NCBI GenBank assembly: GCA_963751455.1
Contig: CAVVUN010000012.1
Span: 96,001 to 160,000 of the forward strand
Length of the DNA: 64,000 nucleotides
Direction of reading: 5' to 3'
Origin: Nitrospirota bacterium
Lineage (GTDB): Bacteria; Nitrospirota; UBA9217
Below the pieces are notes generated by a model. It searched no databases. It worked only from the letters and a program-made list of their open reading frames with translations, and was not told where the DNA came from. The position numbers and the translations under genes were made by a program. Numbering within the stretch: the first letter of the stretch is position 1; the number at the start of each line of letters is the position of its first letter. Shown piece by piece: positions 2,299 through 7,592 of the stretch.

Positions 2299-2586
2299 AT
2301 GATTCAGTCATTTGCTTCTTCCGAAACGGAACGCTTCTTTGCCACCGGAAAATCGCGCCGCTTGCCGCGGGATATACTGAAGCGTGCAGCGATGCGCTTG
2401 ACACAGTTGGATGGAGCCGTGCGCCTCGACGATTTGCGAAATCCGCCTTCCAACAGACTGGAAGCGTTGGCTCATGATCGTGTCGGTCAATGGAGCATTC
2501 GCATTAACGACCAGTGGCGCGTATGTTTCCGTTTTGAAAATGGCGATGCGTATGACGTTGAAATCGTTAGATTATCATTAAATTAA
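2299..2586 (+). CDS. higB: HigB-type (RelE/ParE superfamily) toxin with frameshifted C-terminus
   Basis: MIQSF...DLRNPPSNRLEAL...GQWSIRINDQWRVCFRF...DVEIV; the expected DYH end is out of frame. Confidence 0.85.
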   Translation: MIQSFASSETERFFATGKSRRLPRDILKRAAMRLTQLDGAVRLDDLRNPPSNRLEALAHDRVGQWSIRINDQWRVCFRFENGDAYDVEIVRLSLN

Positions 2587-2599
2587 AGGAGATACAGAT

Positions 2600-2896
2600 A
2601 TGGTTAAGAATGGTTTGCCTGCAATTCATCCGGGAGAATTCCTGGCAGAAATCCTGGGAGAGATGGGTATATCTCAGGCTGAGTTCGCGCGCACTATCGG
2701 GGTATCGCCGATGCGGATTTCTCACGTAATCAAGGGTGTTCGTCCGGTAACGGCAGAACTGGCATTGTTGTTCGGTCGCGCGTTTAACCAGACGCCGCAA
2801 TACTGGCTTAATCTTCAGGCGTCTTACGATTTAAAAATCGCGAAGGCAAGTATCGGTAAGCGCCTTGCCGGTATACATGCCCTTGCGCATTCCTAA
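2600..2896 (+). CDS. higA: HigA antitoxin (XRE HTH)
   Basis: IHPGEFL...SQAEFA...WLNLQASYDL. Confidence 0.92.
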   Translation: MVKNGLPAIHPGEFLAEILGEMGISQAEFARTIGVSPMRISHVIKGVRPVTAELALLFGRAFNQTPQYWLNLQASYDLKIAKASIGKRLAGIHALAHS

Positions 2897-2924
2897 TTTC
2901 CCGTCAACCAATACCCGAGAATAA

Positions 2925-2983
2925 TTCCAACCTGCGCCTCGACAGCTACGCGCCAAAGGCGGCGCGTCAGGCGCGCATTGGCT
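2925..2983 (+). other. attC-like site 2 (3' core degenerate, ATTGGCT)
   Basis: TTCCAACCTGCGCCTCGAC...ACGCGCC-AAAGGC-GGCGCGTCAGGCGCGC; closely related to the site at 6906. Confidence 0.65.
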
Positions 2984-3051
2984 CCGGGGAAAATGCTCTA
3001 CGTCGGCCGGAGCCGCTGAGTCAAGTCGTTTACCAAAAGGAGGATGTGAGC

Positions 3052-3180
3052 ATGAGATACAGTGTACTCTGTGTAATAATTTCTGTGATTGTTGGAATTG
3101 GCCTAGCTGGATGCAGCGGTGCATCGAATAATTCAAATAATAACAGCGATTCTGCCTCTTCACCATGTTTGACGGTCTGA
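3052..3180 (+). pseudogene. Short or truncated lipoprotein cassette ORF (42 aa)
   Basis: RBS AGGAGG; MRYSVLCVIISVIVGIGLAGCSG carries an LAGC lipobox; preceded by a GTTTACC core-like site. Confidence 0.5.
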
Positions 3181-3237
3181 GGCAGTGCCTTGCTAAATTA
3201 TACTGCTTCTGAAGCCTTGATTTTTTTTTAAAAAGCC

Positions 3238-3268
3238 TTGACCTGTCTATTACTTCATAGTTTATGAT
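3238..3268 (+). promoter_or_regulatory. MerR-type promoter with 19-bp spacer
   Basis: TTGACC (3238-3243), 19 nt containing the CTAT-N6-ATAG dyad, TATGAT (3263-3268). Confidence 0.75.
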
Positions 3269-3290
3269 ACACTCCAGCTCAGGAGGTATC

Positions 3291-3842
3291 ATGTACACCA
3301 TCGGTCAACTGGCAAAGAAAATCGGTCTCTCCCGCAGCACCCTGCTCTACTACGATTCGATAGGCCTCTTTTCTCCCTCTGGAAGGAGTAATTCCAATTA
3401 TCGTACATACACCGAAGAGGACCGCGACCGTCTTGAGCAGATCTGCACCTACCGCCGGGCCAGCCTGTCCCTGAACGATATAGGCCGGATCATAAAAACA
3501 AGAAACAAACGGAGCGTTGTTCCGCTTCTCGAAAAGCGGCTTGATGCACTGAACAGGGAAATCCGCGCTCTGCGCAACCAGCAACATTTCATTGTAAAGC
3601 TTTTGAAGAACGATCTCGCGCTTTCAAAGATCAGGGTCATGGACAGGGAGAGCTGGATCAAGCTGCTGGATAGGGCCGGTCTGGACGAGGCGGCCAGGGA
3701 CAAGTGGCATGCAGAATTCGAGATGCTTGCTCCCGACGCGCATCAGGATTTTCTCGAATCCCTCGGCATTCCAGGCAAGGAAATCACACTTATCAGGAGG
3801 TATTCAAGGCACGGACGAAAGACCGAGTCAGCCGGGCGCTAA
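3291..3842 (+). CDS. MerR-family transcriptional regulator (not Hg-sensing type)
   Basis: MYTIGQLAKKIGLSRSTLLYYDSIGL...RSNSNYRTY HTH, coiled coil, C-terminal WHAEFE...AHQDFLESLGI domain; RBS AGGAGG; only one Cys. Confidence 0.92.
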   Translation: MYTIGQLAKKIGLSRSTLLYYDSIGLFSPSGRSNSNYRTYTEEDRDRLEQICTYRRASLSLNDIGRIIKTRNKRSVVPLLEKRLDALNREIRALRNQQHFIVKLLKNDLALSKIRVMDRESWIKLLDRAGLDEAARDKWHAEFEMLAPDAHQDFLESLGIPGKEITLIRRYSRHGRKTESAGR

Positions 3843-3885
3843 TGTGCGGCAAAGACTTTTGAATGACGTTTTTAACAGAAGGAGG

Positions 3886-4650
3886 ATGAAGGTGAAAGAC
3901 AGGATCATGCTGGGATTATGGAAGTACATGCTGAATGTCCCTTCTTTTATGATGGACATGAAGAAGCAGATTGCCCGTGAAAAAATGAGATATGAAGCAG
4001 CTGTGGGTTTTATGACCGAGGACCACCGTCGTGTGCATCATTTCGTTGTCAGGGAACTTCCCGATGCCGGCAAACCCTTGTCCCCTGAATTAATAGCGGA
4101 CAAACTGGGCCTGCCCTATAATCGGGTCGCGTTCGTTCTTAATGATCTCGAAAAGCATATGACCTTTCTGTTCAGGAATAAGAATGGAGCAGTAACGTGG
4201 GCATACCCGGTAACGGTCGACAAAACGCCCCATCACCTCACATTCAGTTCCGGCCAACAGGTGCACGCGGCCTGAGCAGTGGACGCATTTGCCACGCCCT
4301 TCGTGCAAGGGCGATTACGGAACGAGCATATTACAGTCACGGTCCGCACTGAGTGCGCCCACTGTAAAACGCCGATGGAGCTGACTATCGACAGTGATCT
4401 CAATTGCACTATCAAGGAAAATGGGTGCGAGCCGATGGTCTTTATGCCGAATGTGGACCTCTTGAACCTTCAAGACGAGAGCATCATCAACGCATTCTGA
4501 AAAGAGACGGTCTTCTTCCGGTCGGAAGAACACGCACGAGAGCACCGAAAAAGGACACACCGGATACGAGGGGTTTATTTGACTGCGGAACAGATGAAGG
4601 AGGGCACGAAGATAATCCAGAGCGTGCTTTTTGGATTTCCTGATACATGA
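3886..4650 (+). CDS. MerB-like organometallic lyase, predicted selenoprotein with two Sec (UGA at 4273 and 4498), about 254 aa
   Basis: Reading through both TGAs gives AYPVTVDKTPHHLTF...VHAA-U-AVD...TECAHC...SIINAF-U-KETVFFRSEEHA, collinear with MerB YAWCALD and SFCCHVHFFAS; SECIS-like hairpin after each TGA. Confidence 0.85.
4295..4313 (+). promoter_or_regulatory. SECIS-like hairpin 1
   Basis: CGCCCTT-CGTGC-AAGGGCG; loop starts 26 nt after the TGA, with G at loop position 2. Confidence 0.65.
4513..4530 (+). promoter_or_regulatory. SECIS-like hairpin 2
   Basis: TTCTTCC-GGTC-GGAAGAA; loop starts 19 nt after the TGA; GGUC as in the E. coli fdhF SECIS loop. Confidence 0.75.
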
Positions 4651-4770
4651 TGTTTATCAACTTGAAAAAAGCAATGTGGATAGTCACCTGAACTTGAGGC
4701 CGGTGAAAATAGAATTCAATACAGTTGCCGATCCGGAATATGCAGTGTTTTCAGAATGGCTAAGGCCGTT

Positions 4771-6105
4771 TAAGTGGACCCCTCTGTCAAGACAATAAAG
4801 GGGTGAGATTAAGATGGTAACCAACCAAGCCGCAGCTGCATGGCGCTGCCCCGGTTTCTACCTCTCCCTGAGGTTCTTTTCGCTCTTTGAATTTATCCAC
4901 AATCCTTGCTCCACCGCCGTTCGCTGTTTGATAGATCACATCCGGTGTGCTGTAGTCCAATGATTGATGTGTTCTTTCCGTGTTGTAGAACATAAAGTAT
5001 TTCGTCAGCCCCAGTTGCGCTTCAGGTACTGTGGCGTACCCTTTTAAATATACGTCTTCGTGCTTTACGCTCCGCCATAGCCGTTCCACGAAGATATTGT
5101 CCAATGCACGGCCGCGGCCGTCCATGCTGATGTTAATGCAGTGCGCCTTGAGCACGCCGGTGAAGGCCTCAGAGGTGAACTGGCAGCCCTGATCGGTGTT
5201 GAAGATCTCGGGGATGCCGTATGTCTGTAATGCCTGTTCCAGGCAGTCCACGCAGAAGCTGCTATCGAGCGTGTTTGATAATCGCCATGCCAGCACTTTG
5301 CGTGAGTACCAGTCGATCACGGCCACCAGGTACACAAATCCCCGCGCCAGGCGGATGTAGGTGATGTCAGTGCTCCATACCTGATTGGGTCGTGTCACCG
5401 ATACGCCTCTGAGCAGATATGGATAAACCATGTGCTGCGGGCTGGGGCGGCTGGTGTTCGGTCCCGGTGCCATGCCTGCCAGCCCCAGAATGCCCATTAG
5501 CCGCTGTATCCGTTTTCGGTTGACCTGATGCCCTATGCCGCACAAGTACACGGTTATTTTGCGGCTGCCGTAGAACGGATGCCGGGTGTATTCAGCGTCG
5601 ATCTCACTCAGCAGGGTCAATTCCAGCTCGTCCGGGTCGGCAGTCAGATGCGGCGCATAGAAAGTGGACCGGTTGACACCTGCCAGTTCGCATTGTTTGG
5701 TTAGCGCCAAAGGGTTTTTGGTATCTACCCAGTGCCGCCGGTCCGCTATAGGCTGATCCCGGACTTTTTTTTAAGCCAGTCCAGTTCCATCTTCAGCCGT
5801 CCGATCTCGGAGTAGAGCCGCTCCGAACTGGCAGCAGGATCTACCGGCGCGGGACCGCGCGTAGTGTCAAATATGCCCGCAGCCTGATCTTGCAAAACCT
5901 TTTTCCACTGCCCCACTTGCGTTGGATGTACGCCGAACGCCTGGGCAATTTCGGTTACTGTCTTGACACCTCGGATCGCCTCAAGCGCGACCTTGGCTTT
6001 GAACTGACTGCTGAAATTTTTGCGCTTTTTTTCGCTCAAAACCTGCTCCTTTTTAACGGCAGGTTACCATCTTAAACTATTGTCCGAAAATTGGGGTCCA
6101 CTATA
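4771..6105 (-). mobile_element. IS3-family insertion sequence (about 1335 bp)
   Basis: Imperfect inverted repeats AGTGGACCCC-N8-GACAATA at both ends, GTT direct repeat outside, orfA/orfB arrangement. Confidence 0.93.
4787..6039 (-). CDS. IS3 transposase OrfAB: orfA 5746-6039 plus DDE orfB 4787-about 5770 via -1 frameshift
   Basis: OrfA HTH FKAKVALEA; OrfB WSTDITY, FNTDQG, DNIFVERLWRSVK; A8G slippery run at about 5764-5772 on the minus strand. Confidence 0.92.
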
Positions 6106-6365
6106 GTTTTAAAGTCAATTTTTAGAGCAAAGAACTATAAAACCAAAGTCATCTTCGACATACAAAAGTGGTTTGAAACAGATGATAGAAGTAGAGTGTG
6201 AAAATCATTTTATCAACGTTGAGAGAACAAGGGATCACTCATCAAGTAGTCGATCTCAAGAATTACTGATGTGAAACCGAAACGTCGAAGTAAATCGAAG
6301 TAAGTCCTTGATTAAAAGGGCATCTCGTTGTAAAATCATTATAAACGTTGATGGAGGTGTTCCTA

Positions 6366-6596
6366 ATGCCAATGAAAGTAAAAGAAATCGAAGAAGAGGC
6401 ACTTCGGCTTAGTTCGCATGAGCGAGCCCTGCTTGTCGAACATCTTATCGGAAGTTTGGAGCCCGATGAAGATCCTGACGCTGAGCGTGCTTGGATTAAG
6501 GAAGCCGAGCGCCGCTACCAGGACTACAAGGCAGGAAAAATGAAAACGAGACCATCTGAACAGGTTTTCAAAGAGGCCCGCGCAAAATTGAAATGA
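6366..6596 (+). CDS. Addiction-module antitoxin
   Basis: ALRLSSHERALLVEHLIGSL...AWIKEAERRYQDY; ATGA overlap with the toxin. Confidence 0.85.
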   Translation: MPMKVKEIEEEALRLSSHERALLVEHLIGSLEPDEDPDAERAWIKEAERRYQDYKAGKMKTRPSEQVFKEARAKLK

Positions 6597-6895
6597 TGCC
6601 GATTGACTTCCTTCCCGAGGCAGAGCAGGAAATGATCGAGGCTGCGCTTTACTATCAGTCTCTATCATCAGGCCTAGGAGATGACTATCTCGACGAGGTC
6701 GAACGCGCTGTTCGCTCCATAACATCCTCCCCGCAAACATGGCCAATTCTTGAAGGCAATTTGAGAAGACGGCTTATCAAAAGATTCCCCTTCGCTGTTT
6801 TATACAGGATTGAGCAGGATAAAATTCTGATGGTCGCTGTTGCCCATCTGAGAAAAAAGCCAGGATACTGGAAAAATAGAATCCGTACAAAGTAA
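6593..6895 (+). CDS. RelE/ParE-family toxin
   Basis: FLPEAEQE...RRRLIKRFPFAVLY...VAVAHLRKKPGYW. Confidence 0.9.
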   Translation: MMPIDFLPEAEQEMIEAALYYQSLSSGLGDDYLDEVERAVRSITSSPQTWPILEGNLRRRLIKRFPFAVLYRIEQDKILMVAVAHLRKKPGYWKNRIRTK

Positions 6896-6905
6896 ATACC
6901 CGAGA

Positions 6906-6966
6906 TTCCAACCTGCGCCTCCACAGCGACGCGCCATAAGGCGGCGCGTGACCCGCATCGTTATCG
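6906..6966 (+). other. attC-like site 3
   Basis: TTCCAAC ... ACGCGCC-ATAAGGC-GGCGCGT ... GTTATCG. Confidence 0.7.
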
Positions 6967-7417: not shown

Positions 7418-7481
7418 ATCCAACATCACGCCCACCGCACGCCTCGCGGCCGGCGGACGCGGCTGAACTCGTTCGTTGCTG
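7418..7481 (+). other. attC-like site 4
   Basis: ATCCAAC ... GC-rich imperfect hairpin ... GCTGAACTCGTTC-GTTGCTG. Confidence 0.55.
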
Positions 7482-7592
7482 CCCGTAGATAGAGATTCTG
7501 GAAGTGTCCCTCTTGACAGCTCTATCGTGGATCATCTATCCTTAGACTAAGCCTTTTTTCTACTCCCCTACGACCTGGCTGCAAAAAAACAG

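Follow-up and report, generated by a model that had tools for sequence, protein, structure and literature searches.

Conserved SECIS-like hairpins after two in-frame UGA codons predict a double-selenocysteine MerB-fold protein in a Nitrospirota bacterium

The window analyzed here is a stretch of 64,000 nucleotides from a Nitrospirota bacterium (contig CAVVUN010000012.1, assembly GCA_963751455.1), and coordinates given without a genome label are positions within it. Near one end it carries a MerR-family regulator gene followed by a gene with the MerB fold that contains two in-frame UGA codons, each with a hairpin downstream. The features of the locus are listed below, with homologue counts referring to 88 loci or to the 75 non-redundant loci among them.

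3238..3268, plus strand: promoter-like TTGACC-N19-TATGAT upstream of merR, the same element being present in seven of nine loci examined
3291..3842, plus strand: MerR-family regulator of 183 amino acids (Pfam MerR_1, 55.5 bits)
3886..4650, plus strand: MerB-fold gene, one open reading frame through two in-frame UGAs, 254 amino acids from ATG 3886
4273..4275, plus strand: UGA1, residue 130, aligned to MerB Cys96; TGA in 88/88 loci
4282..4284, plus strand: Asp133, aligned to MerB Asp99; Asp in 75/75
4295..4313, plus strand: hairpin 1, SECIS-like, 7-bp stem CGCCCTT/AAGGGCG with loop CGTGC (4302-4306), 26 nt after UGA1
4354..4365, plus strand: C157-x-x-C160, with Cys157 aligned to the structural MerB Cys117
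4498..4500, plus strand: UGA2, residue 205, aligned to MerB Cys159; TGA in 88/88 loci
4510..4533, plus strand: hairpin 2, SECIS-like, 7-bp stem TTCTTCC/GGAAGAA at 4513-4530 plus two lower pairs, loop GGTC (4520-4523), 19 nt after UGA2
4648..4650, plus strand: terminal TGA without a hairpin (best stem 3 bp), serving as internal negative control

Because the homologues start at GTG 3892, this codon is a likelier start than ATG 3886. The regulator contained a single Cys, had no Hg-sensing Cys set, and reached none of the NCBIfam cut-offs for metal sensors. Promoters activated by MerR typically have a 19-bp spacer; the promoter scan, which allowed spacers of 16-18 nt, does not cover TTGACC-N19-TATGAT. 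A merR gene lay directly upstream of the double-UGA gene in seven of the 75 loci, the recurring neighbors elsewhere being MarR, thioesterase, or MFS genes; no mer or sao genes were among the recurring neighbors of the 75 loci, 45 of which had at least 600 nt of upstream sequence.

The wider surroundings included a broken integron-integrase-like gene with a partial TIGR02249 match (240-846), attC-like repeats (2924-2974, 6905-6956, and about 7420-7485), and toxin-antitoxin pairs at 2287-2896 (HigBA) and 6348-6895 (which we take to be RelE-like), and the merR plus MerB-like module looks like a member of a cassette array. An element with terminal inverted repeats, presumably IS3-like, occupied 4773-6102 directly downstream of the double-UGA gene. 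A 2,043-nt contig of run X1 aligned with 3250-4750 without interruption, showing 12 differences, and the same run contained nothing closely matching the host selD; perhaps the module is mobile between hosts.

Translated through both UGAs, the protein matched the Pfam MerB domain (PF03243) with 61.7 bits against a cut-off of 27. An AlphaFold model from an 89-sequence alignment, in which U was entered as C, reached a pLDDT of 93.8 (an earlier prediction from eight sequences, with a pLDDT of 56, was set aside). Foldseek matched this model to MerB crystal structures at E values from 4.7e-12 (3F0O) to 2.5e-10, with TM-scores for the top ten matches of 0.61-0.67 by query and 0.72-0.79 by target, and returned no non-MerB match below E 0.1. 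The essential catalytic residues of MerB are Cys96, Asp99, and Cys159 according to the available text of PMC10114901, and Asp99 and Cys117 are included in the MerB signature residue list in the accessible portion of PMC8261052. Relative to MerB (R831b; PDB 3F0O; NF009710, NF033555), the double-UGA protein shared the fold, Asp99 and Cys117 (Asp133 and Cys157), and the spacing of the two catalytic residues. It differed in being about 20% identical, in having TGA in place of both catalytic Cys codons, in lacking MerB Cys160, in carrying an N-terminal extension and an extra CxxC motif, and in being encoded without a mer operon or MerA. In the non-redundant set, the Cys of that extra motif were kept in 75/75 (Cys157) and 74/75 (Cys160), and the residue before UGA2 was Phe in 74/75. 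The C-terminal part was well conserved and would complete the active site in the model.

The 88 loci comprised seven genome loci, the window, and the best 80 of 560 metagenome matches (47-82% identity), with L009 excluded from the counts as a duplicate; removal of 13 loci at 90% DNA identity left the 75 used for statistics, with a mean DNA identity of 61%. Since the metagenome scan pattern contained ATPFV[QE], the peptide of hairpin 1 was partly selected by the search and its codons were not. All 88 loci, window included, had TGA at both sites and no further internal stop. Among 149 database cluster representatives (top matches), 94 broke off immediately ahead of residue 130 and 13 immediately ahead of residue 205, and the database copies carrying a source name were hypothetical proteins. 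A scan of viral contigs for the double-UGA gene gave no match.

Such public gene calls, which are fragments or show Trp under code 4, would also suit a pseudogene, three small genes, or organisms in which UGA means Trp or Cys throughout, as would the frameshifted selD of this assembly. We consider these explanations extremely improbable: in 88/88 loci every internal stop was a TGA at one of the two catalytic positions, with none elsewhere, and the protein was conserved beyond both UGAs. The genome uses TGA as a regular stop, with 833 long ORFs terminated by it, and it was the terminal stop in 25 of the 67 homologues whose stop was covered. In addition, an independent assembly was 99% identical over 3250-4750, with no gap and with no difference listed at the UGAs or hairpins.

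The host encoded selA and selB over cut-off, and two tRNA-SeC calls were obtained that were quite different from one another (G000:C1:369631-369729 and C13:3947-4041); the C13 call, from a contig of 9 kb, may reflect contamination or a second system. The host selD carries its own UGA and was split by a frameshift in this assembly; selD, rplA, and fusA were each split between reading frames (G000:C2:129959-130880; C15:981980-982703 and 993491-995669). Given the split fusA and rplA, and selD being unbroken in six relatives, the selD frameshift is probably an indel error of the assembly. No close copy of the host selD was found in the contigs compared with it. The presence of selA in eight of nine carriers versus 55 of 64 genomes in the order was uninformative because the gene is near-universal there.

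The initial annotation had reported two SECIS-like hairpins, and both lay where it placed them (4295-4313 and 4513-4530), with loops 26 and 19 nt after their UGAs. RNAfold recovered both stems in the minimum free energy (MFE) and centroid structures, with mean pair probabilities of 0.86-0.96 and MFE values of -10.9 (hairpin 1) and -9.8 kcal/mol (hairpin 2) in the window, but the energies were no better than those of shuffled sequences (six segments, z = -0.17 to -1.85). Stems of 7 or more perfect Watson-Crick pairs with a G-start loop, 16-37 nt downstream, were uncommon in this genome, following 0.46% of 12,936 in-frame codons drawn at random and 1.1% of the 833 TGAs that terminate ORFs. From this background, two occurrences in two sites have a probability of roughly 2e-5 to 1e-4, if independent. 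An Rfam scan of 2500-6500 gave no match over cut-off, the sole match being a chance snoRNA below it. The single sequence gave modest support, and the peptide FF-x-S-E-E by itself favors hairpin 2; the initial view that the hairpins are evidence independent of the protein alignment is overstated.

Stronger evidence came from codon choice among the homologues. Residues 138, 139, 140, 142, and 210 (75/75) and Phe211 (71/71) were each encoded by a single codon: hairpin 1 was written CCC, TTC, GTG, and GGG in 75/75, with CAA or CAG between, and hairpin 2 as TTC TTC in 75/75 and 71/71. The mean share of the top codon at 41 other four-fold sites was 0.48. By parsimony, on a tree made without the hairpin columns, zero wobble changes had occurred at the six hairpin codons compared with 11-30 at eleven control codons. 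All 75 homologues had a fully paired core stem at both sites; synonymous re-coding of each homologue's own peptide, with gene-wide codon use and G-U pairs allowed, gave full pairing in 10% (site 1) and 24% (site 2) of trials. Pairing was entirely Watson-Crick in 63/75 and 72/75, versus 2.5% and 1.4% after re-coding. In the homologue alignment, hairpin 1 consisted of an invariant 5-bp core with one or two variable outer pairs.

Most hairpin pairs were invariant, and covariation was carried by two pairs per stem. The closing pair of hairpin 2 was U-A in 65, C-G in eight (about five independent origins), and U-G in two homologues, and its pair 19-30 was U-A in 70 and C-G in four (one origin); pair 24-40 of hairpin 1 was G-C in 63, U-A in five (two origins), and broken in six. 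Both stems thus contained compensatory changes, and in every double change one side also altered an amino acid. The covariation score was reached by 0/500 shuffles in either alignment and was lower for slid partners, while the number of pairs with double changes was not above shuffles and kinship among the copies inflates such tests. RNAalifold recovered both stems unaided from the alignments. In the same genes, a stem of at least 6 bp followed the invariant Cys157 codon in just 4/75, and the terminal TGA was followed by one in 4/25 homologues.

Forms of the protein with Cys served as further controls. Among 12 distant (about 25% identical) MerB genes with Cys96, none had a stem of at least 6 bp at the corresponding position, and such a stem followed these genes' own upstream UGA in 10/10 among those listed. 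The peptide of hairpin 1, PFVQG, was kept in 0/9 closer relatives with Cys at 130 (a protein-level control), and in seven of these nine proteins the 5-bp core of hairpin 1 was impossible under any coding. Eight of the nine end at residue 204, a stop that is probably a kept UGA. At the second site, a 6-7 bp stem containing G-U pairs was present in 5/11 Cys159 genes, from which it follows that the FF-x-S-E-E peptide predisposes to hairpin 2. The hairpins were conserved with UGA and not equally conserved with Cys, so neither of the two refuting outcomes named in the initial annotation was obtained, and its interpretation is supported.

These data bear on whether conservation of the peptides TPFVQGR and FFxSEE creates the hairpins by accident, with no function in the RNA. 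The ordinary folding energies, the self-pairing of FF-x-S-E-E in 24% of re-codings, and the stems in Cys159 genes are what such accidents would produce; the complete pairing in all 75 homologues, the unchanged wobble positions, the repeated compensatory changes, and the rarity of a comparable stem after Cys157 are not. This explanation is largely refuted, and we regard it as very unlikely.

Both hairpins were compared with the bacterial SECIS consensus, the Zhang and Gladyshev model as summarized in the Fig. 2 legend of PMC13188914 (in the part of that source available). As applied here, the model calls for a stem-loop within the coding sequence directly 3' of an in-frame UGA, an apical loop of 3-9 nt with G at position 1 or 2, a stem of 4-16 bp, 16-37 nt from UGA to loop, and an MFE of at most -7.5 kcal/mol. 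Both hairpins agreed with all five sequence criteria. The loops were 5 and 4 nt long, with CGUGC in 75/75 at site 1 and GGUC (73), GUUC (one), or GGAC (one) at site 2; their spacing of 26 and 19 nt was fixed in all 75 homologues; and stems spanned 5-9 bp, with at least 5 bp (site 1) and at least 6 bp (site 2) in 75/75. The MFE of 60-nt segments was at or below -7.5 kcal/mol in 75/75 and 73/75, which is a weak test at this G+C. The structure was kept by selection and lost with Cys, clearly at site 1 and partially at site 2, and no categorical difference from the consensus was seen in either hairpin.

A coding-potential scan of the host for Sec sites listed 42 of 228 candidates, from which 17 plausible sites were picked by eye; the scan was incomplete, having missed selD and the two UGAs of the window. 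It had replaced a loose-pattern motif search for the host's other selenoproteins, which returned mostly noise. The loop lay at 16-23 nt in 16/17 of the picked sites and at 34 nt in one, with loop sequences such as GUGC and GGUC; the spacing of hairpin 2 is typical for this genome and that of hairpin 1 is on the long side.

The SECIS loop of E. coli fdhF is GGUC. The likeness to fdhF noted in the initial annotation holds for hairpin 2, which has this loop and G at position 23 counted from the U of UGA, and is limited to that. The fdhF type has a bulged U17 with G23 and U24 in the loop (available text of PMC8659212). Neither hairpin conformed to this type: the bulged U17 was in neither, U17 being paired in hairpin 2, which has G24-U25 instead of U24, and the loop of hairpin 1 lies at 30-34. 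Both hairpins are likely ordinary bacterial SECIS elements, as predicted from their sequences. The bacterial mechanism requires one hairpin per UGA, and families with two or three Sec are listed in the accessible part of PMC13188914.

Taken together, double Sec recoding of this MerB-fold gene is very probable from the comparative sequence data, and nearly as firm is the prediction that the conserved hairpins within the coding sequence act as SECIS elements, one per UGA, placing Sec at both MerB catalytic Cys positions. Following the known bacterial pathway, SelB-GTP-Sec-tRNA would bind the G-containing loop just downstream when the ribosome arrives at each UGA. Failure at UGA1 or UGA2 would free a fragment of 129 or 204 residues, and the yield of complete protein would equal the efficiency of read-through at one site multiplied by that at the other. 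The suggestion that two insertions would make this yield very sensitive to selenium supply is plausible.

The same arrangement might instead be mainly regulatory, a selenium switch in which a truncated N-terminal winged-helix fragment or ribosome stalling outweighs the full-length product, or, in a variant, in which pairing of nt 17-24 with 30-36 forms an alternative stem that exchanges with hairpin 1. The serial placement of two Sec sites, the long distance from UGA1 to the loop of hairpin 1, and the frequent MerR or MarR regulators upstream would fit such a role. The alternative stem paired in 94.8% of cells, and Phe135 was mostly encoded by the TTT that suits it (46/59), yet it showed no two-sided change, equaled its shuffles in 500/500, and had a median probability of 0.00 versus 0.89-0.93 for hairpin 1, for which reasons it was rejected as the main fold. 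With the C-terminal part well conserved and predicted to complete the active site, a mainly regulatory role is improbable, and recoding to a full-length double-Sec protein remains the preferred reading.

Related genes showed further combinations of Sec and the MerB fold. Another MerB-like subfamily with two UGAs, about 21% identical to the window protein, includes L003 (G000:C6 about 115300-116070, minus strand), L123, L126, L131, and L132; hairpins followed both UGAs in 5/5 of its genes among those listed. Its members had their own hairpin 17-18 nt after UGA1, a GGUC hairpin 19 nt after UGA2 as in the window gene, and, at the position of Asp99, Glu or Asp-like variation (U-G-x-E), and the host copy lacked one base just after hairpin 2. 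In L018-L027 and L030, a thioredoxin-like domain ending in GFSU was joined in frame to a Cys/Cys MerB, and its UGA was followed at 20-21 nt by a hairpin of 6-8 bp that covaried; these are probable selenoprotein-MerB fusions. In G218, the thioredoxin-like/MerB fusion gene adjoined a MerA gene, the one case among 64 genomes in which MerA exceeded the cut-off. L029 (G226), a SaoL-like gene with Cys96 and CU, had a 7-bp hairpin without mismatches, 18 nt downstream of its UGA. Finally, eight full-length relatives (P0002, P0008, P0009, P0012, P0015, P0022, P0049, and P0061) carried Ser, Glu, or Gly at site 1, frequently lacked a Cys at site 2, and are probably catalytically dead offshoots.

SaoL (NF040728) is described in the available text of Haft and Gwadz (bioRxiv 10.1101/2022.07.06.499078) as a MerB-like selenoprotein of the nine-gene SAO locus, with Cys96, CU at 158-159, and one Sec. 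The double-UGA protein resembles SaoL in the MerB fold, in keeping Asp99, in the predicted Sec at the Cys159 position, and in being truncated in gene calls. It differs in that SaoL has Cys at 96 and a single Sec, whereas Sec is predicted here at both sites, and in having FU where SaoL has CU. The protein scored 39 bits with the SaoL HMM (NF040728; cut-off 140), no SAO neighborhood was found at the window or homologue loci, and the best SaoP score in the host genome was 90.7 of 295.

By analogy with MerB, the double-UGA protein is on balance probably an organometal lyase with a Sec-Asp-Sec site. This site would bind an organometal cation such as methylmercury through the two selenolates, Asp133 would protonate the leaving carbon as in MerB, and the metal would be held or passed on without MerA. 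It is quite possible, with the Sec recoding right, that the protein is not an organomercurial lyase and functions as a metal or metalloid sink, chaperone, or sensor, works in redox chemistry through a diselenide, or cleaves another organometal (As, Sn, or Pb). Its scores with the NCBIfam MerB equivalogs (56.2 of 193 and 46.9 of 200 bits), far below the cut-offs, point in that direction, as do the extra CxxC motif with the N-terminal extension and the lack of recurring mer genes beside the double-UGA gene. On general chemistry, two selenolates should hold Hg(II) very tightly, which would hinder turnover. A similar doubt about lyase function has been voiced for SaoL in the accessible text of Haft and Gwadz (bioRxiv 10.1101/2022.07.06.499078). 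Against these points, Asp99, the proton donor of the lyase reaction in the available part of PMC10114901, was kept in 75/75.

The mercury genes of the host and its relatives bear on both functions. No MerA over cut-off was found in the host (best score 384.7 of 454) or in the seven carriers within the order, which favors a role other than that of an organomercurial lyase. The host carried hgcA over cut-off (G000:C15:162185-163162; L147), followed by an hgcB-like ferredoxin gene. Across the order, hgcA over cut-off was no commoner in carriers (6/9) than overall (52/64), and this co-occurrence is uninformative because hgcA is near-universal in the order. In two related genomes, hgcA and the double-UGA gene shared a strand, the latter lying downstream by 2.7 and 6.5 kb (G405:C1:2277128-2281503, L149; G401:C33:4888-13120, L150), which speaks against functions other than that of an organomercurial lyase; as the genomes are related, the link was counted as one event. 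Between hgcA and the double-UGA gene, these loci carried a gene with a hemerythrin domain and then a small gene lacking annotation. A search of the flanks of 96 loci (the 88 and eight others; median locus 3.5 kb) found no full-length match to hgcA or hgcB, the links in G405 and G401 falling outside these short flanks; the sole match, a 33% partial one resembling an acetyl-CoA synthase subunit, was rejected.

Published catalogs describe a different form. Among MerB-like forms, Table 1 of the 2026 prokaryotic selenoprotein inventory (PMC13188914) gives only the single-Sec SaoL in the part available, and the accessible portions of a 2022 review (PMC9312934) and of the deep-Sep supplement (PMC12013277) likewise hold only the SaoL form. 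The BSepDB article text and one supplementary file (PMC13326102) contained no MerB term. A literature search retrieved no paper on a double-Sec MerB, with thin coverage of subscription journals, so absence from print is not proven. The predicted two-selenium MerB-fold protein is not listed in the selenoprotein catalogs searched and is distinct from SaoL. The MerB survey in PMC8261052 was screened by Cys96 and Cys159 according to its available text, and surveys of this design miss double-UGA genes. None of the MerB-only genomes in that survey was reported to encode HgcAB; in contrast, this host has hgcAB and the double-UGA gene and no MerA over cut-off.

The interest of the locus lies in the protein, a predicted double-Sec MerB-fold in a host with hgcAB and without MerA over cut-off, for which the hairpins are RNA-level evidence that a large family stored as "hypothetical" fragments is a real selenoprotein family. 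Their two alignments are unusually well constrained and could be used to test spacing rules for non-enterobacterial SelB, and the family gives a natural series of Sec/Sec, likely Cys/Sec, and Cys/Cys forms. The degradation of methylmercury in anoxic settings is poorly explained, and the double-Sec protein is a concrete candidate enzyme. A bolder proposal, which we rate as rather unlikely, is that anaerobes, many of which are methylators with hgcAB and without MerA, have in the double-Sec MerB-like proteins an overlooked means of cleaving methylmercury or trapping mercury. If this were true, two serial SECIS elements would gate synthesis of the enzyme to selenium supply, and selenium availability would be tied to net methylmercury production in sediments and groundwater.
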